Assembly: GCA_964456225.1 (NCBI GenBank)
Contig: CAYWAV010000010.1
Location: forward strand, 1 to 63,952
DNA: 63,952 bases
Reading direction: 5' to 3'
Origin: an uncultured Chitinophaga sp.
GTDB lineage: Bacteria; Bacteroidota; Bacteroidia; 2-12-FULL-35-15
The notes beneath the pieces were generated by a model. It did no database searches. It saw nothing but the letters and a program-made list of their open reading frames with translations, and was not told where the DNA came from. Shown here one piece after another: positions 1 to 20,289 of this stretch (positions within the stretch are counted from its first letter, which is position 1; the number at the start of each line of letters is the position of its first letter). The translations under genes and the position numbers were made by a program.

Positions 1-1058
1 CCTACGTACTTCAAATGTACCACATGTGATTTTACAGCGCTCAATACCGTTGGGAACTCCAAATACGTTACTCCAAACTGTTCACATGTCTCACGCACTA
101 ATTCGCTAATCTTCGGATAATGAATATGACTGATACGAGGAAACAAATGATGTTCTACCTGAAAGTTTAATCCACCGGTGAACCAAGAAACGATTTTACT
201 TTTTGTTGCGAAGTTGGCTGTGGTTTGAATTTGGTGTACCGCCCACTCTGCTTCTATCTTATGATTTGTGGATGTTGGCATTTCAAATGCTGCATCTTCA
301 ACAATGTGTGCCAATTGGAATACCACTGCAATTACAAATCCGCATACAAATGCGATAACGGAATAACCGATAATTAATTCCAACCAACCAACAGTAAATA
401 TTGGAACAACAATAAATGCTCCGATATACATCAGTTTGCTCACCCAAAAAATAACATGCTCTTTCGCATCCATTTTACGGAAAGGCAAATCACCGATTTT
501 ACCAGTAAAGTATTTTTGAAAGTCCTGGAAGAAAATCCAAAGCAGATACGTTACCCCATACAATACAACCCAATAAACATGCTGAAAACGGTGAAACCAA
601 TGTTTCTTCTGATCTTCGTGCACACGAATCCAGGGTTTGATATCAATATCATCGTCCATTCCTTCAATGTTTGTAAATGAATGGTGATTTACATTGTGCT
701 TGTATTTCCACAGATAAACGCTTCCTCCCATTACATTCAAGGAATAACCCATCAATTCGTTTACCCATGTTTTGGTTGAAAAACTACCATGAGCTCCATC
801 GTGCATCACGTTAAAACCTATTCCTGCAAGATTAATTCCCAACAAAATACATAGACCTAATGAAATCCACACATTTGGGGTGAAAAATACAAGAATGGTA
901 TATAACGCAATGAGTGAAAGAGAAAGTAAAGCGGTTTTTACATATAATTTGTAATTACCAGTTTCCTTGATATTGTTGGATTTGAAGTAAGTATCTACTT
1001 TTCCTTTAAGCGTATTAAAAAAATCGCTGTTCTTATTATTAAAACTAACTTTTTGCAT
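1..1058 (-). CDS. Membrane acyl-CoA/fatty acid desaturase (3' end runs off the window)
   Basis: Missing from the ORF track. Manual translation from ATG at 1058 (MQKVSFNNKNSDFF...) is open to base 1 and carries three His boxes: HDGAH, HNVNHH, QVEHHLFP. Confidence 0.93.
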   Translation of the reverse strand, partial: MQKVSFNNKNSDFFNTLKGKVDTYFKSNNIKETGNYKLYVKTALLSLSLIALYTILVFFTPNVWISLGLCILLGINLAGIGFNVMHDGAHGSFSTKTWVNELMGYSLNVMGGSVYLWKYKHNVNHHSFTNIEGMDDDIDIKPWIRVHEDQKKHWFHRFQHVYWVVLYGVTYLLWIFFQDFQKYFTGKIGDLPFRKMDAKEHVIFWVSKLMYIGAFIVVPIFTVGWLELIIGYSVIAFVCGFVIAVVFQLAHIVEDAAFEMPTSTNHKIEAEWAVHQIQTTANFATKSKIVSWFTGGLNFQVEHHLFPRISHIHYPKISELVRETCEQFGVTYLEFPTVLSAVKSHVVHLKYV

Positions 1059-1143
1059 TCTTTTTGAATTAAGAGATTCGTACAAAGATAATCATTAAAC
1101 TACTTGATAATCTGTTAAATAATCAAAAATGACCTGTTGAAAA

Positions 1144-1626
1144 CTACTTGATTTTAGCCTTCAGCGACCAGGTGAAAATAAATTCAGCAACCGTATCTCC
1201 ATGTTCGTCTACACCAATTGATTTTAAGTCGGTAGTTACGCCTTCTCCTCCTTGTTTCACTTTAGCAATCAATTCAGTGATGTGATTTCCGTCATTGCAA
1301 GTAAAAGTAATTTTTCCGATGGCTTTTTTGAAATAAGTTGCTTTGTTTTGAACGATTAACATAGAAACTGCTGGAGTAGAATTATAAATCGAATTCATCA
1401 CTAACAATCCTGTGCTCATTTCGGCAGCCATAGCCTGACAAGCAAAGTATATGGAGTGAAATGGATTTTGTGTTAACCAACCAAATTTCACTGTTGTGAT
1501 TGCTTTTGAGTCGGACAATTCTTTTACACGCACTCCAGCTATATACGCCATAGGCAAACTCTTCAACAAATAAATGCGGAATAGGAAGGAGTTGTTTACG
1601 AGCTTTTGAAATTTTGTTTGTGGCAT
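1144..1626 (-). CDS. DUF4442 / PaaI-YiiD-like hotdog-fold thioesterase-family protein
   Basis: 160 aa; NPFHSIYFACQAMAAEMSTG and FKKAIGKITFTC segments typical of this family. Confidence 0.75.
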   Translation of the reverse strand: MPQTKFQKLVNNSFLFRIYLLKSLPMAYIAGVRVKELSDSKAITTVKFGWLTQNPFHSIYFACQAMAAEMSTGLLVMNSIYNSTPAVSMLIVQNKATYFKKAIGKITFTCNDGNHITELIAKVKQGGEGVTTDLKSIGVDEHGDTVAEFIFTWSLKAKIK

Positions 1627-1650
1627 TTTATTTCAAATTATTATTATTAA

Positions 1651-1820
1651 CGTCATTGCGCCTGTCCCGATTCTTTCGGGAAGGCACCCCGAGTATCGGG
1701 TGATGTGGCAATCCCTGCTTATTAGTGTCTCTATTCTTCAATAGGCAGATCCCGTGTCGTGGCACGGGATGACAGTTCTAATAATCCTTTCGAGCCGTCA
1801 TACTGAGCGGAGTCGAAGTA
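1651..1820. repeat. Composite cluster of GTCA/CGTC-tagged REP-like palindromes with nested hairpins
   Basis: cgtcattgcg...gtggcaatc (1651-1713) contains hairpins tcccga-ttctt-tcggga and cccga-gta-tcggg. Followed by agatcccgtgtcgtggcacgggatgac (1747-1773) and gtcatactgagcggagtcgaagta (1797-1820). Confidence 0.85.
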
Positions 1821-1824
1821 TACT

Positions 1825-2721
1825 TTACAGTGGAAACGTACTTCCAGACAACTCCATCGCAGCATTAAAAGCACTTTCATCAATGCCCGTTTTAATATTG
1901 TTCTTCTTGAAATACTGAAGTAGATTTTCAGTTGGCATATTGCCTGTTAATTTATCTGTCGCCATCGGACAACCACCATGGCCTTTTATGGCACTATCAA
2001 ATCGTTTGCAGCCAGCAGCATAAGCAGCCTGTACTTTTTCTTCCCAAGTAGTTGGAGTGGTATGCAAATGTGCTCCTATTTCTACTCCGGGAAATTCAGG
2101 AATTAATTTTGAAAACAGTGTTTTGATATTTTCAGGATTTGAAACACCAATAGTATCACTTAATGCGATGATTTTAATTCCCATTTGCGCCAAACGTTTT
2201 GTCCAGTTAATTGCAACATCACTGCTCCACTCGTCTCCGTAAGGATTACCGAAAGCCATTGAAATATAGACAACCAACTCTTTTTTATTTCTTACACATA
2301 AATCTTGTATCTCCTCAACTCTAGTAATTGATTCTGAAATAGAAGAATTAGTATTTCTTTGCTGAAATGTTTCGGAAATAGAAAATGGAAATCCTAAATA
2401 GGATATTTCTTCAAACTCTACTGCATCCTCTGCTCCTCTTACATTTGCAACAATGGCTAATAATTTTGAATTAGTATTTGATAATTCTAATTGATCCAAA
2501 ACCTGAGCTGTGTCTCGCATTTGCGGAATGGCTTTGGGAGAAACAAAACTTCCAAAATCAACGGTATCAAAACCACATTTCAAAATGGAATTGATATATG
2601 CGACTTTTTTTTCTGTTGAAATAAAATCGTGGATGCCTTGCATCGCGTCTCGCGGACACTCTACTAGACGGATGTCAGATGACCGATGACGGATGCTAGA
2701 TTGTTGTTGAATAATTGACAT
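1825..2721 (-). CDS. Hydroxymethylglutaryl-CoA lyase
   Basis: ECPRDAMQG, HLH and GGCP motifs of HMG-CoA lyase. ATG at 2721 preferred over TTG at 2727. The N-terminal extension is encoded by a heptamer repeat. Confidence 0.92.
   Translation of the reverse strand: MSIIQQQSSIRHRSSDIRLVECPRDAMQGIHDFISTEKKVAYINSILKCGFDTVDFGSFVSPKAIPQMRDTAQVLDQLELSNTNSKLLAIVANVRGAEDAVEFEEISYLGFPFSISETFQQRNTNSSISESITRVEEIQDLCVRNKKELVVYISMAFGNPYGDEWSSDVAINWTKRLAQMGIKIIALSDTIGVSNPENIKTLFSKLIPEFPGVEIGAHLHTTPTTWEEKVQAAYAAGCKRFDSAIKGHGGCPMATDKLTGNMPTENLLQYFKKNNIKTGIDESAFNAAMELSGSTFPL
2667..2699. repeat. Heptamer-period array (GATG every 7 bp), left arm of the inverted pair flanking the four-helix-bundle gene
   Basis: GATG at 2671, 2678, 2685, 2692 (gatgtca gatgacc gatgacg gatgcta). 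Confidence 0.85.
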
Positions 2722-2733
2722 AAACAAACAAAT

Positions 2734-3098
2734 TTAATTTATAGATTTTAGTAATGCTTGAAGTTTTGCAAATAATTTAGCTCCAAGTAATTCGAATTGT
2801 TCACATATTGGTTCAGAAGAACTCAACTATTTTCTTCTCTTTATGATTATGTAGCAAGCGTAAACTTCAATATAAGAACGTATAGCAATTCTTAAAAACC
2901 TAGCAAATTCAGCATCAGAAGAACTTGTTGACCCTTCTGCAATGTTTAATGAAACCGAGGTGCCTGCTCTTTTAATTTGACTTGATAAATTATACAACTC
3001 GTGTGGAGGCAAAAACCAGCTATATCATAAACATGGTCGCTAAGCTCTAAAGACAACTTCCAAACTTCTAATCTCTCAAATTTATATTCTTGCGCCAT
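2734..3098 (-). pseudogene. Four helix bundle protein (TIGR02436 / 23S rRNA IVP-like) pseudogene
   Basis: ATG 3098 gives MAQEYKFERLEVWKLSLELSDHVYDIAGF, then a one-base deletion in the T run near 3011-3015, then LPPHELYNLSSQIKRAGTSVSLNIAEGS...FARFLRIAIRSYIEV. In-frame TAG at 2827-2829; the frame continues LSSSEPICEQFELLGAKLFAKLQALLKSIN to TAA at 2734. Confidence 0.88.
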
Positions 3099-3125
3099 AA
3101 AGTTTATTAATTAAATTCTACACAA

Positions 3126-3145
3126 AGCATCCGTCATCAGTCTTC
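3126..3145. repeat. Heptamer-period array, right arm (inverted copy of 2678-2697)
   Basis: agcatccgtcatcagtcttc. Its reverse complement gaagactgatgacggatgct matches gatgaccgatgacggatgct at 18/20 positions. Overlaps the pyrD stop codon. Confidence 0.8.
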
Positions 3146-4168
3146 CAGCAATGCTTTGCAGATCTTTTTCGCTATTCCAGGCCCTTCGTATATAAAACCT
3201 GTATACACTTGAACCAAACTTGCTCCTGCTTTTAACATTTCAATTGCATCTTTTCCAGTATGAATTCCTCCTACTCCAATTATAGGAAATGCTTTGTTTG
3301 AATTATCACTTAAGTATTTTACAACTTCTACAGAACGCTTTGTTAAAGGTTTTCCACTTAATCCTCCCGCTCCATAAGTCTGGAGTTGGGAGTCTGGAGT
3401 TTGGAGACCTTCTCTTGAAATGGTTGTATTTGTTGCAATCACTCCATCAATTTTGGTTTCTTTTACAATAACAATTATATCATCCAGTTGTTCGTTGGTA
3501 AGGTCTGGAGCAATTTTTAAAAGAATCGCTTTTGGATTTTTCTTTTGAGCATTTAATTCCTTCACTCGCATCAACAATTTTGTCAAAGGTTCTTTATCCT
3601 GCAAAGCTCGTAATCCGGGAGTATTGGGCGAACTCACATTCACTACAAAATAATCTACATAATCGAAAAGTGCTTCAAAACATTTTTCATAATCACTTAC
3701 CGCATCTTCATTTGGTGTTAATTTATTCTTTCCAATGTTTCCACCGATAATAATATTCGTTTTTCTGGCTTTCAATCTTACAACTGCCGCTTCTGCTCCG
3801 CCATTGTTAAATCCCATACGGTTTATTAATCCTTCATCTTCGGGCAAACGAAACATGCGGGGTTTGTCGTTTCCCGATTGTGCTTTGGGAGTTAATGTTC
3901 CAATCTCAATAAATCCAAATCCATAATAACCCAACTCATCATACAACTTCGCATCTTTATCAAATCCTGCTGCTAATCCAACGGGGTTAGGAAATGTTAA
4001 TCCGAACAACTTTCGTTCTAATCGTTTATCATTAACCGAATAAATACTTTTTATTAAGGATGGAACTCCCGGGATAGAACAAAGGATTTTAATCGCTTTG
4101 AAAACAAGATGATGAATGTTTTCAGGCTCCCAAAGGAAGAAAATTGGCTTGATTATGCTTTTATACAT
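3137..4168 (-). CDS. pyrD: Quinone-dependent dihydroorotate dehydrogenase (class 2)
   Basis: [37 protein letters not shown] and GVGGI motifs. Confidence 0.97.
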
Positions 4169-4197
4169 GAGGCTAAATTACGCTGTAAAATTAACAG

Positions 4198-4242
4198 AAA
4201 AAAGCAAAGGCTTGATAAATTATATCAAGCCTTTGCTTTTTT
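4198..4242 (-). terminator. Intrinsic terminator downstream of the orphan T9SS CTD fragment
   Basis: 17-bp perfect stem aaagcaaaggcttgata/tatcaagcctttgcttt with A and T tracts. Confidence 0.8.
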
Positions 4243-4257
4243 AAATTAAAAATTATT

Positions 4258-4547
4258 TTATTGTTGCTTCAGCATTTTCTTTGTTTCGAAAATTTTGCCA
4301 TCCGCTACAAGTGTGTATGTGTAAATGCCATTTGACAAATCACTAGCAAATACATTCAATTGTCCTTTTCCTCTCTCATTCAAATCAACCGATTGAATTA
4401 ATTTACCTTGTGCATTGTAAAATAAAATTTGAGCTTTACTTATATTGTCTGGTAAAAAATAATTAATAGTTGTTTGTTCAGCAAATGGATTTGGAACGTT
4501 TTGTTCCAAAACAATGGATTGTCCATCTTTTAAATCAACAGTTGTTT
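4258..4547 (-). pseudogene. Orphan T9SS type A C-terminal sorting domain fragment, near-identical to the 3' end of the gene at 61106-63952
   Basis: 4291-4503 is identical to 61139-61351 (213 bp). Homology stops at 4547; in-frame TAA at 4552-4554; no ATG, signal peptide or passenger domain upstream. Confidence 0.85.
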
Positions 4548-4595
4548 TGGATTAAACAAATTGTGTGCGGTTTAAAATCGCTTTTTGTTAATAAT

Positions 4596-4626
4596 AAAAA
4601 AACCGATTCAGTCATTAATCGGTTTT
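4596..4626 (-). terminator. Intrinsic terminator of the TPR gene
   Basis: aaaaccgatt/aatcggtttt stem; T tract on the minus strand. Confidence 0.7.
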
Positions 4627-4645
4627 ACTTTTTTGGCATTCATAT

Positions 4646-5716
4646 TTATTTCTTTTTCTCAGGAGGCGGACCGCAATTTTCGGACAATGATTTTGCTTCT
4701 TCTATTCCTAATGAAGCTGCAATTTTAAAATCTTTGCAATGGCTGAAATCTTTTGAGTCGGCATTGGCCAATCCTCTTTTATAATAAGCTTGTCCATCTT
4801 TCGGTTTTATACGGATAGCTTCTGAATAATCATACATTGCCGAGCGGTAATTTTCCATTCCTTCACAAGCAGTTCCTCTTTGAATATAGGCTTCGTAATA
4901 ATTTGGACTCAATTTAACAACAGCAGAAAAATCACTGAATGCCATTTTCCAGTTGGAAGCAGCATTGTATACTAGTCCGCGTAAATAAAAAAGCTTCACA
5001 GTATCGGGATTAATTTTCAAGGCTTTGTTATAATCCAGAATTGCTTTATCGTATTTTTTTAGCAATACGTTGCACTGAGCACGTTTTATATAAGGTTGAA
5101 TAGAATCGCTATTTAATTGAATAGCTGAGGTATATTCGGCAATAGCTCCGGCATAATCTTTTGCTTCCATTTTAGTGTCTCCGTTAGAAACAAAAGTGCC
5201 GCTCATTGCCGAACAAGCGTTGGAGTTGTAAAGTCCTTTTGCTTTCTCATTTTTCAACCCTTTGGCCTTTCTCAAATCCATGCAACCCTTATCTTTTGAG
5301 CCTTTTGCAATAAGAATAATTCCTCTTTCACAAAATGCTTCTCCATATTTAGGGTCAATTGCTATTGCCTTTTCAAAATCAGCCAAGGCCTCTTCTTGTT
5401 TGCCTATGCCCACAAAGCACATTCCGCGACCATAATAAGGAGTTGCCAAATCGTGGTTATATAGAAAACCGTCAGGCATATCAGAAGTTGATCTTTGGTA
5501 TTCGTTTAAAGTGCCGTATTTTTTAAGTTTATCCAGATAAGTTGCAGTTGCTGGGTCGTTTAAGCGTATTGCATTTGTGTAATCCGTTTCTGCTTCAGCA
5601 AAGTTCCCTGCCGACAATTTAGTATTGGCATTTTGAATAATTACTGACAAACTTTGAGACACCGAAAACAAGGAAATCAATAAAAAAGAAAAAATAAAAG
5701 CCGACTTAATCTTCAT
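4646..5716 (-). CDS. Secreted tetratricopeptide repeat protein
   Basis: Signal peptide; multiple TPR units (AIAIDPKYGEAFCERG, ALKINPDTVKLFYLRG, AIRIKPKDGQAYYKRG). Confidence 0.9.
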   Translation of the reverse strand: MKIKSAFIFSFLLISLFSVSQSLSVIIQNANTKLSAGNFAEAETDYTNAIRLNDPATATYLDKLKKYGTLNEYQRSTSDMPDGFLYNHDLATPYYGRGMCFVGIGKQEEALADFEKAIAIDPKYGEAFCERGIILIAKGSKDKGCMDLRKAKGLKNEKAKGLYNSNACSAMSGTFVSNGDTKMEAKDYAGAIAEYTSAIQLNSDSIQPYIKRAQCNVLLKKYDKAILDYNKALKINPDTVKLFYLRGLVYNAASNWKMAFSDFSAVVKLSPNYYEAYIQRGTACEGMENYRSAMYDYSEAIRIKPKDGQAYYKRGLANADSKDFSHCKDFKIAASLGIEEAKSLSENCGPPPEKKK

Positions 5717-5824
5717 AGGAATATTTGGTTTTTAAAAAATAATTCTCAAATTTAATTGCTAAAGGCCAATTTTAAGGCAAATTATAGATATAATTTCAAC
5801 AAAATCACATTAATTTTAAACAGG

Positions 5825-5851
5825 TGCAACTTTTTTCGACTTTATAGCATC
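5825..5851 (+). promoter_or_regulatory. Possible ECF sigma-type promoter upstream of a T9SS cargo gene
   Basis: TGCAAC-N16-GCATC about 50 bp upstream of ATG 5901; resembles ECF -35/-10 spacing. Inference only. Confidence 0.3.
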
Positions 5852-5900
5852 ACACATAATGAAAAGATAGTATCTTGGTCATTAAAATTAATAGCTTTAT

Positions 5901-7853
5901 ATGAAAAAAATGAATTTTTTTAAAATCGCAGGAATTGCTTCACTCTTATCAGCAAACACCCTTTTTGCACAGGAAGCAGTTCCCAACTACACACACAACA
6001 CACAACATCCGGAAGAAGCAGCGTTTTTAGTTGATTTTGATGAAGCAGCATTAATTGCTGAATTAAAAGCAAAAGGGATACAAGAAATCGAGTTTAGATC
6101 AATTATTCGTCATAAAAAAATAGAGTTTATTAATGCTAAAAAAGGCATTGTTCAAGAAACGAGCACTTTCTTTTCTCAACAACGCAAATCAATGGGGCCA
6201 TGCGATAATGCAGGTTTCGAAGATGGGACATTCTTAAACTGGACAGGCGCAACAGGTCAGTGCGATTTCTTACCAACAACTTGGGCACCAGGCTTTGTAA
6301 CCACTCGTCACACAATCGTTTCTGGAGCAGGGTTTGATGCTTTAGCTATTAACACAGTTACAAGTGTTCCTGAAATCCCATTGATTGCACCGGGTGGACT
6401 AAGCTTTTCTGCTCGTTTAGGTAACGACCAGATTGGCGCTGAAACTGAGTATCTTAGATATCCAATTACAGTTACTGCTGCAAACACATCTTTTACTTAT
6501 CAATATGCTGTTGTTTTAGAAAACCCGACAGGACATACAGCTGCGGAGCAACCTCGTTTTGATATTACGGTCTATGATGCTTCTGGAACTCCAGTTTCTG
6601 GTCCATGTGGTGTATATTCGGTAGAAGGATTAGCTGCTGCCAGCGACACAACTTTCCACCCATTCAATGATTCTTTCGGTTCTTTACAAGGATATTATAA
6701 GAAATGGACTACCGTTAGTATCGATTTAACTCCTTATATTGGAACAACTGTAACTATTCAATTCCAAACAAGTGATTGTACTTTAACCGGACATTTTGGA
6801 TATGCTTATATAGATGCAAGCTGTTCACAATTAGCTGCACAAGTTGCATTTTGTCCAGACGATACTTTATTATTGTTATCCGCTCCAGGTGGATTCAATA
6901 CTTACCAATGGTATGATGCTTCATCCGCAATTATACCGGGAGCAACAAATGATACATTAGCAATTATAAATCCTATTTTAGGGCAAGTTTACAGTGTTAG
7001 TATGCTTTCAGCTTCTGGATGCGGAACTTCATTAACAGTTACTCTTGCTTATTCTGAAATTAGTGTTGGGGCAAATGTGATTAATGCTACCTGCCACGAT
7101 TACACTGACGGATATGCCTATGTCACTCCTGGTGGAGCTATTCCTCCTTTCACATATGTTTGGGTGGATTCTACCACAGGTTTAACGGTTGGCGGTAATA
7201 ACGATAGCTTGGTAGGATTTGCTCCAGGAACGTATTTCATTACCGTTTCCTCTTTAGGGGGTTGCTCTACTACTGATACTTTAACCATTGCAAATCCACC
7301 AAACCCGGGTGATACACTTGGAATTGGAACAGTATTTTGTCCGGGTGACCCAACTATCAACTTGTATGCTCCTGCAGGATATGCTTCTTATGAGTGGTAT
7401 ACAAATCCTGATGGAACAGGCCCTTTACTAGGTACTGGTGATTCATTGTTTTTAGTGAATCCAATAGCAGGAACACAATTTACGGTTGTGATGTATCCAG
7501 TTACTGGTTGTCCTGTTTATTTGACAACTCTACTAAACTACTCTCCACCGCCTTCCTTGCCTGATTATATTGTAAAAACAAACGTATTTACGCCTGATGG
7601 TGACTTTGAGAATCCTACCTTCGATTTCAATAAATTCGCTTTTGTGAAAGAATTCCACATTGAAGTGTATGACCGTTGGGGCAAAAAAGTGTTTGAAACA
7701 AATGACTTAACCGACAAGTGGGATGGAAAAGTAAATGGTAAAGATGCAACAGAAGGAGTTTATTTCTGGTTAGCACACTATACTTCTGCTTGCGTAGTTG
7801 ACGCTCAGCCAATTGAAAACAAAGGGTTTGTTCATTTACTTAGAAAAAATTAA
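5901..7853 (+). CDS. T9SS type B cargo (gliding-motility-associated C-terminal domain) with SprB/Ig-like repeats
   Basis: Signal peptide; C-terminal NVFTPDGD...YDRWG...WDG...GVYFW...KGFVHLLR type B CTD. Confidence 0.9.
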   Translation: MKKMNFFKIAGIASLLSANTLFAQEAVPNYTHNTQHPEEAAFLVDFDEAALIAELKAKGIQEIEFRSIIRHKKIEFINAKKGIVQETSTFFSQQRKSMGPCDNAGFEDGTFLNWTGATGQCDFLPTTWAPGFVTTRHTIVSGAGFDALAINTVTSVPEIPLIAPGGLSFSARLGNDQIGAETEYLRYPITVTAANTSFTYQYAVVLENPTGHTAAEQPRFDITVYDASGTPVSGPCGVYSVEGLAAASDTTFHPFNDSFGSLQGYYKKWTTVSIDLTPYIGTTVTIQFQTSDCTLTGHFGYAYIDASCSQLAAQVAFCPDDTLLLLSAPGGFNTYQWYDASSAIIPGATNDTLAIINPILGQVYSVSMLSASGCGTSLTVTLAYSEISVGANVINATCHDYTDGYAYVTPGGAIPPFTYVWVDSTTGLTVGGNNDSLVGFAPGTYFITVSSLGGCSTTDTLTIANPPNPGDTLGIGTVFCPGDPTINLYAPAGYASYEWYTNPDGTGPLLGTGDSLFLVNPIAGTQFTVVMYPVTGCPVYLTTLLNYSPPPSLPDYIVKTNVFTPDGDFENPTFDFNKFAFVKEFHIEVYDRWGKKVFETNDLTDKWDGKVNGKDATEGVYFWLAHYTSACVVDAQPIENKGFVHLLRKN

Positions 7854-17427: not shown

Positions 17428-19017
17428 ATGAGAAAACAATTTCTTTTCCCAGTGCTTCTAGTCATCGTTCTATTCTCTTCTTGTAGAAAAGAAATGGAAA
17501 AAGCTTCATGGGATACCGATATTTTGGCTCCTTTGATTTCTGCGAGTATGAATATCAATAACATTCTTCCTGATTCTATTTTACAGGCGAATGCTGACAG
17601 TTCCATGAAAATTGTTTTCAATAATGATTTGTACAAAATAGATATTGATACGCTGTTTAATATTGAAGACACAACGATACAAAACAGTTATGCTCTTCCC
17701 TCTCCACTTCCTTTACCTGCCGGATATCCTATCCCTTTCCCCTCTACAACAGCAACAACTTATGCACTTCCTGGTATAGAATTAAAGAAAGTCATTATAA
17801 AATCGGGATTTGTTTCATTCAAAGTAAAAAGCAAAATTCAAGAGGAAACGGTTTATACTTATGGAATACCATGTGCTACTGACCCATTCGGAATGGTATT
17901 TTCAAGAACATTCACAGTGCCTGGCAGAGTTGGAACTACTCCAGGAGTATACAATCTATTGGTAGACTTAAGTGGGTATACAATAGACTTAACCGGGCCG
18001 TCAGGAACACAAATCAATACTATTTATACATCTTTGACTGCGAATATAGGAGCTACTCCAGTAACTGTAACTCCTGCTGATAGTTTGATTATTGGCAATA
18101 CTTTTTTTGATATTATTCCTTACTACGCAAAAGGTTATTTTGGAAACAATACTTATAATGTTGGTCCGAGCACCAGCAATTTTACTTTGTTCGACAGAAT
18201 TGTAGATGGCACTTTACAATTAGAAGATGTTGATTTTAATTTCAAAATTGAAAATCCTATTGGAATGGATGCGCGCTTATACGTAAGCAACATCAGCTCA
18301 ATAAATACACGAACAGGCACAACAATCAATTTAACAAACAGCATGATTGGAAGTACGATTAATATTAATCGTGCGGCTGAAAGCGGAGGAATTGTTTATC
18401 CAACCTTTGCTAATTTCCCTTTAAACACAACCAACTCGAATATCAAACCAATGATTGAAAATTTACCTAATAAGTTTGGTTATACGATGCAAATCATCAC
18501 AAACCCATTGGGAAATATTTCGGGCTCAAATGATTTTATTTATTCCGACCGATTGATGAAAGCATCTTTGGACATGGAGATTCCGCTTTCCTTAGTCGCC
18601 AACAATTTAACACTTCAAGATACACTTGCCTTGAATATTTCTCAGACAGGTGGAACGCAAAATATTCATGAAGGAACCATTACGTTGTTCGCAAACAACG
18701 GTTTTCCTTTTGATGCTCAATTGCAACTCTATTTGTTAAACGAAAGCAATGTTGTTACAGATTCTATTTTTGGATATGCCAACACCATTGTGGAAGCACC
18801 TATCAATTCGGCTTTACGAGTGATTGGAAAAAAATTAACTAAAATTGCCATTCCCATCAGCGAAAGCAAAATGAATTTATTATACGAAACAAAGAAAGTT
18901 GTATTGAAAGTAAAATTCAATACCAGCGCACAACCTCAATACATTAAAATATACAGTGAGTACTCCATTGATGTAAAACTGGTAGGTGATTTTAATTATA
19001 CAATACAACTTCAATAA
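17428..19017 (+). CDS. Uncharacterised beta-rich outer-membrane lipoprotein
   Basis: Lipobox LFSSC; 529 aa; co-oriented with the next gene, 3 bp apart. Confidence 0.8.
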   Translation: MRKQFLFPVLLVIVLFSSCRKEMEKASWDTDILAPLISASMNINNILPDSILQANADSSMKIVFNNDLYKIDIDTLFNIEDTTIQNSYALPSPLPLPAGYPIPFPSTTATTYALPGIELKKVIIKSGFVSFKVKSKIQEETVYTYGIPCATDPFGMVFSRTFTVPGRVGTTPGVYNLLVDLSGYTIDLTGPSGTQINTIYTSLTANIGATPVTVTPADSLIIGNTFFDIIPYYAKGYFGNNTYNVGPSTSNFTLFDRIVDGTLQLEDVDFNFKIENPIGMDARLYVSNISSINTRTGTTINLTNSMIGSTININRAAESGGIVYPTFANFPLNTTNSNIKPMIENLPNKFGYTMQIITNPLGNISGSNDFIYSDRLMKASLDMEIPLSLVANNLTLQDTLALNISQTGGTQNIHEGTITLFANNGFPFDAQLQLYLLNESNVVTDSIFGYANTIVEAPINSALRVIGKKLTKIAIPISESKMNLLYETKKVVLKVKFNTSAQPQYIKIYSEYSIDVKLVGDFNYTIQLQ

Positions 19018-19020
19018 TTT

Positions 19021-20289
19021 TTGCTTTTGAAAAAGATACTCTTCATACTTGCTATATTATCTGCTCCAATGCTTGCAGATGCTCAAATTTCTGCCATCTT
19101 CTCTGATGAGTTTCCCGATTCTACAAAAACACGTGTTGGCTTAACAGCGGATTACGGATTAAACGCTACGGCACTCACCTCACAATTCGTTTCAAAGTTT
19201 TATAAAGGTGGTTTTATTGACAAGGGTTTAAAAGATCAAGTTTTAAATCGCACAAAAAACATGAATACGATTGGTGCTGATTTAAATTATGGCGTTTATG
19301 TTGGAATTAAATTGGACTCCATTTTTCACAAAAAGAATGTTAGTTTGTTTTTTAGTATGCGCGACCGTGCACACTTTGATGCTCGTTATTCCAAAGATTT
19401 TTACAAAGTAGGCTTTTATGGAAACGCGGCTTATGCAGGACAAGTAGCAGACTTTAACGATTTTAATTTAAATTATCTTCGTTATCAGCAGTTGCAAGTA
19501 GGATTATTTTCTTCAAAATATGATAGTGCTGCACGCTGGGGAATTGCTGTTTCATTGTTAAAAGGAGAACAATACGCATCCATCTTTGCACAAAAAGCAG
19601 AGCTTTATACCAGTGAGGATGGGACGTACATTGATTTTAATACCAACATGCAAGTAGCACAATCCGATACTGCAAACAAAGGAATTGGTGCGTTTAATGG
19701 TATGGGTGCAAGTGTTGATATTTATTTTGAAGCACCCTTTAAAACAAGATTTGGCAATGCAAAGTTACGTGTATCCATTGCTGATATTGGAGCTATCAAG
19801 TTCAATAACAAGTCGCTTTTTCTAAATCAAGATTCCCTTTTTCATTACGATGGATTTCATGTGAACAGTGTTTATGATTTACAGGATTCAACTTTTGCTT
19901 CTACATCACAAGACAGTATAATCAATTCTGTTGCACCATTTAAAAACCAATCGTTTTCAGTTACACTCCCTTCTGTTTTAAATTTGAGTTATGAAATACA
20001 ATTCAATGAACATTTTTTATTGGTAGAAGGAATTCGTTATGTGTTCAACGGAAACTATAATTTGTTAGCTTATGTAAAAGGGAACTTTATTATCAATCCT
20101 AAATTTACTATTTCTGCAACGGTTGGCTATGGCGGATATGGGAAGTTTAATTATGGATTAGGAGCTTTTGCTAATCTTGGAAAAGGATTTATAATTTATG
20201 CCGGCAGTAGTAATTTGGAAGGTTTTATAACTCCTAAAAAAGCATCCGGACAAGCAGCATACATCTCATTGGTTAAAAATTTCAGATAA
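19021..20289 (+). CDS. Outer-membrane beta-barrel protein, DUF5723-like
   Basis: Signal peptide, alternating amphipathic strands, SIADIGAIKF, C-terminal aromatic residue (NFR); TTG start. Confidence 0.65.
   Translation: MLLKKILFILAILSAPMLADAQISAIFSDEFPDSTKTRVGLTADYGLNATALTSQFVSKFYKGGFIDKGLKDQVLNRTKNMNTIGADLNYGVYVGIKLDSIFHKKNVSLFFSMRDRAHFDARYSKDFYKVGFYGNAAYAGQVADFNDFNLNYLRYQQLQVGLFSSKYDSAARWGIAVSLLKGEQYASIFAQKAELYTSEDGTYIDFNTNMQVAQSDTANKGIGAFNGMGASVDIYFEAPFKTRFGNAKLRVSIADIGAIKFNNKSLFLNQDSLFHYDGFHVNSVYDLQDSTFASTSQDSIINSVAPFKNQSFSVTLPSVLNLSYEIQFNEHFLLVEGIRYVFNGNYNLLAYVKGNFIINPKFTISATVGYGGYGKFNYGLGAFANLGKGFIIYAGSSNLEGFITPKKASGQAAYISLVKNFR

Follow-up and report, generated by a model that had tools for sequence, protein, structure and literature searches.

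A decayed four-helix-bundle gene between inverted heptamer arrays at the pyrD-lyase junction of an uncultured Chitinophaga: a probable intervening-sequence-type element in a protein-coding operon

In the genome of an uncultured Chitinophaga sp., a broken gene for a four-helix-bundle (FHB) protein of the PF05635/TIGR02436 family lies between pyrD and a gene for an HMG-CoA lyase-like protein, and short heptamer arrays stand in inverted orientation on its two sides. What is this unit, how did it come to lie between two host genes, and what might its arrays do? The stretch analysed, called the window here, is 64 kb long (63,952 nt of contig CAYWAV010000010.1); on its minus strand pyrD, the FHB gene, the lyase gene and a DUF4442 gene (1144-1626) follow each other in this order. 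An initial annotation had taken the FHB gene and its arms for a compact insertion unit without a transposase, and for a candidate undescribed system. Our analysis supports the insertion. The locus is probably (at about 0.6 in our estimate) a decayed FHB element of the intervening-sequence (IVS) type, resident in a protein-coding operon, and we are highly confident that it is a true insertion and a member of the IVS-type class. To our knowledge, PF05635/TIGR02436 has no known function apart from Avd. Its association with rRNA intervening sequences dates back to the 1990s, with no mechanism attached.

Joining the two frames of the FHB gene gave a 121-aa protein, which scored 86.1 bits against TIGR02436 (cutoff 24) and 88.4 bits against PF05635 (cutoff 33.8). 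A search with this repaired protein returned 752 relatives, including intact proteins of 97, 91 and 85% identity, and two lesions were located by comparison with orthologs at the same site: a run of A with five bases where the intact orthologs have six, and a premature TAG (Table 1). The profiles and the ortholog comparison thus agree with the initial description of a frameshifted gene with an in-frame stop, and by its reading frame the window copy is a pseudogene of the family. Since the region is 100% identical, lesions included, in eight independently assembled contigs (JGI, ENA and Logan), these are not assembly errors but are real in the population. R44, S48, N52, E55 and G56 of the family motif GxxRxxxSxxxNxxE (PMC3936711), which are invariant or nearly so in the family alignment, are all kept in the window translation. 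A single FHB copy was found by tblastn in the window.

The left array (2671-2698) reads GATGTCA GATGACC GATGACG GATGCTA on the forward strand and was reported by Tandem Repeats Finder (TRF) with period 7, 4.1 copies, 77% matches and a score of 37. Its positions 2678-2697 and the opposite arm at 3126-3145 are reverse complements over 20 nt at 18/20 (90%), and the exact 13-nt core GATGACGGATGCT occurs twice in the window, both times in the arms. When the 150-nt flanks were compared with 3910 random pairs of the same geometry within the window, their inverted-repeat score was 15, against a mean of 8.1 (sd 1.2, maximum 13), and 0/3910 pairs scored as high; the inverted period-7 arms are real in this sense. 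The period-7 signal of the window is modest by itself, being one among 30 TRF rows that score at least 30. No strict GAC chain of three or more units was found in the window; therefore the window copy is degenerate, and the tie of its arms to the GACSGNN class described below rests on comparison with relatives.

Both arms overlap host coding sequence, as had been noticed from the start. The last two codons and the stop of pyrD (GAA GAC TGA on the coding strand, 3137-3145) stand where the 5′ arm begins, and the 3′ arm lies within the lyase open reading frame (ORF) and is translated as the lyase N-terminus. Ahead of the catalytic ECPRDAMQG motif no start codon is available other than ATG 2719-2721 and TTG 2725-2727; one gene caller called a truncated lyase of 272 aa. 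An inner AT-rich inverted repeat spans the FHB stop and start regions and joins the closing helix in the predicted fold, and the long-range arm helix is kept in the minimum free energy and centroid folds of both the window element and a stronger example (L026).

Evidence for insertion came from a junction set of 80 loci, obtained by a metagenome scan with PyrD. Twenty-three pyrD|lyase junctions were empty: they have neither an FHB gene nor two adjacent GAC-type units, and their best period-7 match has a median of 0.48 and a maximum of 0.62. In these junctions the gap from pyrD to lyase is 8-253 nt, the pyrD end (‘...LL(K)xx’ and stop) runs into lyase ‘MK(L/I)IECPRD’, and the lyase N-terminus is short, mostly MK(L/I), directly before IECPRD. 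Among the 23, four belong to close relatives, with identities of 80-82% for PyrD and 84-87% for the lyase. The junctions that hold the element are those of the window, L009-L012, L016, L093, L180 and L184, with FHB proteins 97-60% identical. All of them lack the lyase ‘MK’ start and have instead an ATG a few bases past the FHB stop that reads through the 3′ array; in L011, pyrD also reads on into the 5′ array. Because the empty junctions carry neither gene nor arrays, the gene and its arms are one inserted unit of about 480 nt, in agreement with the proposed compact insertion unit without a transposase.

As judged from this sequence comparison, the insertion displaced the final codons of pyrD, the spacer and the ‘MK’ with which the lyase began, so that the pyrD stop is now inside the 5′ arm and the lyase begins at an element-borne ATG and is translated through the 3′ arm. 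The upstream arm varies among the occupied junctions by whole 7-nt units (one more than the window in L009 and L010, several more in L011), while the downstream, coding arm keeps its position and four-unit length in L009-L012. The dN/dS values among FHB orthologs at this site are 0.03-0.13, a pattern by which the gene is unlike a drifting passenger. In a neighbour-joining tree of the lyase, the occupied loci fall in two neighbouring clades with empty loci between them; the junction would have gained the element once and lost it two or more times, or else gained it twice. The window copy is, on these comparisons, an old, vertically inherited and decayed insertion rather than a recently mobile one. 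In L016 (3521-4400, from a Bacteroidota metagenome-assembled genome), the FHB gene at the same site is likewise frameshifted; its pyrD matches residues 1-208 only, at 35%, and ends with ‘LSDD’ and a stop at the array, which may reflect a disrupted pyrD or a misassembly.

Table 1. Positions of the element, its parts and its two host genes in the window.
Feature	Position	Strand	Evidence
pyrD, quinone-dependent dihydroorotate dehydrogenase, upstream host gene	3137..4168	-	505 bits on NF003652
HMG-CoA lyase-like (HMGL-like), downstream host gene	1825..2721	-	profile match
Four-helix-bundle (PF05635/TIGR02436) pseudogene	2734..3098	-	profiles and intact same-site orthologs, 97/91/85% identity
Frameshift, 1-nt deletion after codon 29	3011..3015	-	comparison with L009/L010, frame translations
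Premature TAG, TAT (Tyr91) in orthologs	2827..2829	-	ortholog comparison
Element-derived segment as a whole, about 478 nt (5′ arm, FHB pseudogene and 3′ arm with new lyase start)	2668..3145	-	occupied versus empty pyrD/lyase junctions
Upstream (5′) arm GAAGACTGATGACGGATGCT (coding strand), 2-3 degenerate heptamers GACTGAT GACGGAT GCT	3126..3145	-	repeat search
Downstream (3′) arm, 4 heptamers, coding strand AGCATCC GTCATCG GTCATCT GACATCC	2671..2698	-	TRF, repeat search
Inner AT-rich inverted repeat, left arm; partner 3098-3117	2731..2750	.	20 nt, 85% complementary (17/20)
Inner AT-rich inverted repeat, right arm	3098..3117	.	repeat search
Element-derived lyase start codon and 18-aa N-terminal extension (MSIIQQQSSIRHRSSDIR), in place of ancestral ‘MK’	2668..2721	-	no other start upstream of ECPRD; absent in 23 empty-site relatives

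Is this anatomy a peculiarity of one junction? One genome per GTDB species was scanned with an alignment of 34 relatives, which gave 80 loci, the groups represented being Bacteroidota, Chloroflexota, Ignavibacteria, Acidobacteriota, Zixibacteria, Gemmatimonadota, deltaproteobacteria and others; about 100 related loci were collected overall. In nearly all of the 80 loci a gene with inverted arrays is visible by eye. Array statistics were taken over 84 loci of the FHB subfamily to which the window gene belongs. GAC/GTC chains, defined as at least three cores at a 7-nt step, were present upstream in 72/84, downstream in 76/84 and on both sides in 66/84 loci, compared with 57 of 2078 control windows (2.7%). 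The median flank inverted-repeat score was 15, versus 7.5 in the controls (1124 random same-spacing pairs and 498 other long ORFs; Mann-Whitney p = 7e-31), and the best period-7 match in the flanks was 0.64-0.68 versus 0.39. Periodic and inverted arrays are thus enriched at other family members, as the insertion-unit proposal had implied.

The heptamer unit is GAC followed by C or G, then G or less often A, and two variable bases (GACSGNN). A typical arm has four units (range 3-20), the median gap between the last upstream unit and the ATG is about 24 nt, and the element typically spans about 520 nt. From the outer ends inward, 59 loci read GAC first and 6 read GTC first. Arms of one locus also resemble each other: over the four variable unit positions their match is 2.23, compared with 1.48 when the arms come from different loci (0/10000 permutations), with the greatest excess at unit position 6 (0.61 versus 0.27), and for 45 loci the own partner arm ranks no lower than fifth among 81. 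Within the pyrD|lyase lineage, where all arms are alike, the duplex energies of own-locus and cross-locus arms gave no discrimination.

The FHB gene is co-oriented with both neighbours in 52/68 loci. Neighbours vary from locus to locus over the 80 loci, and the identified ones are housekeeping genes (pstA/pstB, radA, cofD); the identified insertion sites are pstA|pstB, upstream of radA, upstream of cofD, and pyrD|lyase. No conserved 16S/23S motif was found in the fetched loci examined. Gene-free solo hairpins, in which a loop of about 10-70 nt separates a GAC array from the GTC array after it, occur on contigs that bear FHB elements (seen in L015, L017, L029, L052, L054, L072 and L083) and could be internally deleted or non-autonomous derivatives; the window contains no solo hairpin of its flanking repeat.

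Some arrays are unusually long or complex. L070 (1040-1360) has more than 20 copies of CAGAGGT with an N-run within the array, and L042 (1100-1650) has a compound array in which periods of 7 and 14 nt are mixed; arrays of such length or complexity evidently interrupt or mislead assembly. In the Chloroflexota loci L036, L067, L068, L075, L077, L082 and L088, the 3′ array continues into the N-terminus of a cofD-like gene (IVALAGGVGGAKLA). These cofD-like genes have no obvious in-frame ATG, GTG or TTG, and their start may fall within or before the array.

More distant FHB genes (33-45% identity) were found on cyanobacterial plasmids and on one Gemmatirosa plasmid. Their flanks carry different units of 7 or 8 nt, several as inverted pairs: GGTGACA in Anabaena sp. 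90 (inverted, score 25), GGGAACA in Nostoc edaphicum (inverted, score 27.5) and GGAGATA in Picosynechococcus (inverted, score 14.5). The Gemmatirosa gene has arrays of the 8-nt unit GGGCAGGA on both sides, for which the inverted score was not reliably measured. On the cyanobacterial plasmids the genes lie at cas6/cas4, at cmr2/cmr3 or among conjugation genes; the intrusion of FHB genes into cas operons was noted previously by Zhang and Ye (PMC3936711). On the Pseudanabaena galeata plasmid (L175, 1330-1960), the FHB gene lies between cas6 and cas4 with arrays of 17 or more units, AAAAGCT upstream and AAAAGCC downstream.

The AlphaFold2 model of P0001, the ortholog with 97% identity, had a pLDDT of 96. 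Its TM-score was 0.93 to 2GSC (XCC0516), 0.79 to 2RLD (BT_0352) and 0.73-0.79 to Avd (4DWL, 8UB7), which upholds the Avd-like fold proposed initially, at a sequence identity to Avd of 11-12%. The Avd pentamer binds an RNA stem-loop in the ribonucleoprotein of diversity-generating retroelements (DGRs) (10.1101/2023.10.23.563531), and the entries of the solved relatives, 2GSC and 2RLD, contain five chains each. A single-sequence search gave a family size of 9352 clusters at 50% identity. Unlike Avd, the FHB gene has no reverse transcriptase (RT) nearby, and we know of no report of Avd genes bracketed by heptamer arrays.

The closest described system is the S23p-type IVS of 23S rRNA. In Coxiella burnetii, the S23p ORF of this IVS is preceded by 2-3 tandem GACAGAT units whose copy number varies among strains; the IVS is 428-444 nt long and closed by a 28-bp stem of terminal inverted repeats. 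RNase III from either Coxiella or E. coli cleaves this stem, and on the 5′ side it does so where the first heptamer begins (PMC4990558). Excision by RNase III is shown in the literature only for the IVSs of Coxiella, Leptospira and Salmonella. The element described here shares with such IVSs a PF05635 ORF inside the element, terminal inverted repeats able to form a closing stem (here the 18/20 arms and the 17/20 inner repeat), GAC-type tandem heptamers of varying copy number just upstream of the ORF, a size of 430-500 nt, a sporadic distribution, and a place, here a probable one, on the host transcript with no obvious promoter of its own. With the same ORF family and terminal inverted repeats already on record, to call it an undescribed system was too strong.

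However, there are also differences. The window element lies between pyrD and lyase rather than in helix 25 or 45 of 23S rRNA, its arms are multi-unit arrays that overlap or encode the ends of host proteins, a putative RNase III cut would damage the lyase mRNA, and the FHB genes of its relatives are under strong purifying selection whereas the Coxiella ORF has been reported as decaying. On the reading favoured here, what is new is that an IVS of the S23p type would stand outside rRNA and that a cis-signature runs through the family. In our full-text literature searches, no paper connected the family as a whole with heptamer arrays at its flanks, and none reported units of this kind in spacers of protein-coding genes; the Coxiella heptamer note (PMC4990558) was the sole precedent among them.

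These data suggest the following course of events. A unit of about 480-520 nt, made of a short GACSGNN-type array, a gene for an FHB protein of 117-121 aa with an Avd-like fold, and the array in reverse complement, would have entered the pyrD/lyase spacer in an ancestor of this Bacteroidota lineage and then been inherited vertically. A terminator-like hairpin of 20 bp stands upstream of pyrD, and none was found between pyrD, FHB and lyase on the coding strand; with no such site between the element and its neighbours, the element is likely to be transcribed together with its host operon. In that transcript the arms would pair into a stem that encloses the FHB cistron. By analogy with the homologous 23S rRNA intervening sequences, the closing stem might serve as a substrate of RNase III, a step that we propose tentatively, and it is conceivable, at somewhat less than even odds, that the FHB protein recognises the heptamer arrays, both its own and solo copies elsewhere in a genome. 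In the window organism the FHB gene is now dead, and the 3′ arm is retained because it has become lyase coding sequence.

Several observations weigh against this reading. No mobility enzyme was found among the large ORFs of the window. Mismatches in the arms show no G.U bias toward the sense transcript (74 versus 76), and therefore nothing marks the arm complementarity as a product of RNA-level rather than DNA-level selection. The predicted fold of the window element surpasses shuffled sequences by only a small margin (z = -1.8). L093 retains an intact FHB gene between arms that have lost their complementarity; the gene can therefore persist without pairing. Were RNase III to cut within the 3′ arm, the lyase start codon would be parted from the body of the gene in this lineage, and the Coxiella authors judged S23p to be probably not expressed there (PMC4990558). 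The flavour of the units is partly genome-wide, as arms match arrays on the same contig at 1.88 and arrays on other contigs at 1.42, and the arrays of the Pseudanabaena element are direct, an exception to the inverted arrangement. No target-site duplication was seen between occupied and empty junctions, but the insertion is old and a short one could have eroded.

The missing G.U bias, the L093 gene, the problem of a cut in the lyase mRNA and the weak z-score of the fold make a DNA-level system similar to REPIN-RAYT a serious rival, which we nevertheless consider unlikely. Here the arrays would delimit a mobile unit that lacks a transposase, as well as its non-autonomous solo hairpins, the FHB protein would be a dedicated DNA-binding partner, acting in trans to maintain or spread them, and RNA pairing would be incidental. 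RAYT genes are inherited vertically under purifying selection and flanked by their own repeats, and the FHB gene resembles them in this respect: one small gene lies between inverted copies of a short repeat, solo hairpins are dispersed between genes elsewhere on FHB-bearing contigs and share the unit flavour of the FHB arms of that genome, and the arms have a strong polarity bias. But PF05635 is the only gene between the arms, with no HUH/Y1 transposase and no recognisable catalytic domain in the FHB protein, and the repeats are tandem heptamers where those of REPIN-RAYT are REP palindromes. Neither a target duplication nor recent intragenomic copies were seen, the lack of a transposase and of a direct duplication also setting the element apart from insertion sequences and miniature inverted-repeat transposable elements. 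Moreover, the experimental data on the homologous element all concern RNA (RNase III, binding of RNA by Avd), and the examined elements lie in transcribed operon spacers, mostly co-oriented with their neighbours. That the arrays are instead generic, slippage-prone spacer heptamers which arise independently, with FHB genes landing or persisting beside them, is improbable. The STRR and TAACTGA heptamers of cyanobacteria and Beggiatoa also form 7-nt tandem arrays in spacers, often end just upstream of start codons and have a patchy phylogeny, and they are described as direct repeats without an associated gene (PMC4679880); FHB genes on cyanobacterial plasmids are flanked by such heptamers, FHB-free arrays are present in the same genomes, and copy number differs between close relatives as it does between Coxiella strains. 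However, the arrays described here are inverted pairs of a different unit around one family, they stand on both sides and close to the ORF in most loci, the empty pyrD|lyase sites are free of them, and the GAC core is conserved across phyla for the subfamily whereas distant subfamilies use other units.

The initial annotation had also raised repeat writing or templated slippage by a retroelement, and the fold does resemble that of Avd. A DGR remnant or another RT-dependent process with the FHB protein as Avd is, however, very improbable: no RVT domain, transposase or integrase was found among the 34 large ORFs of the window (template repeat/variable repeat pairs were not searched window-wide), the Pfam table of the identical contigs lists no gene with an RT domain closer than about 6 kb to pyrD, no neighbour is conserved over the 80 loci, and the identity to Avd is low. 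A phage-borne element was likewise rejected, with no tblastn match in 50,697 phage GenBank records and none in IMG/VR. There remains chance, that is, an ordinary pseudogene whose flanking 13-nt inverted match was shaped by the coding constraints of pyrD and lyase. The TRF score is modest, and a 13-mer search with up to two mismatches was not significant alone (12/100 shuffles gave at least two hits). Yet no random pair of the same geometry reached the observed score, and the architecture recurs in about 100 independent loci and is missing from empty sites; the window control, the family-wide statistics and the empty sites together refute chance resemblance.

If the IVS-type reading is extended, FHB/Avd-like proteins might be dedicated partners of inverted arrays of 7-8 nt, in a widespread transposase-less element that colonises transcribed spacers such as operon junctions, cas operons and 23S rRNA helices. 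We regard this extension as doubtful. If true, the S23p-type rRNA IVSs and part of the heptamer repeats still unexplained in Cyanobacteria, Bacteroidota, Chloroflexota and others would have a common origin, and the unit sequence would co-evolve with the FHB protein subfamily. The inverted GACSGNN cis-signature and the pairs of empty and occupied sites make the function of this orphan family open to direct experiment, and they link four things that have been treated separately: rRNA intervening sequences, Avd, the FHB genes of cas operons (PMC3936711) and bacterial heptamer repeats. For annotation, the arrays add spurious or real N- and C-terminal extensions to neighbouring genes, as with the lyase start codon and the pyrD stop here.

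Some other features of the window were noted. Two adjacent large ORFs (17428-19017 and 19021-20289; 529 and 422 aa) have no Pfam match at E <= 1e-5. The spacer between lyase and the DUF4442 gene (1627-1824) is GC-rich (about 44%) and has small hairpins at 1666-1700 and 1749-1770; it was rejected as a related repeat, its 25-mer motif GTCATACTGAGCGGAGTCGAAGTAT being unique in the window and its hairpins short and local. A second period-7 array (3377-3406; AGTCTGG x 4, or a 14-nt unit x 2) lies within the pyrD coding sequence. We rejected it as a second arm or relic, as it falls in a variable surface loop with no indel against 11 relatives, and it appears unrelated to the element. Rfam gave no relevant match in window positions 1-6000, and the weak matches (mir-26, ohsC) fall on the terminator hairpin (4172-4244). 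This hairpin, a near-perfect 20-bp palindrome followed by a T-run (4198-4242), lies between a Por_Secre_tail gene (4258-4509) and the start of pyrD; it is likely a terminator, and by its position the pyrD-FHB-lyase unit starts with pyrD.

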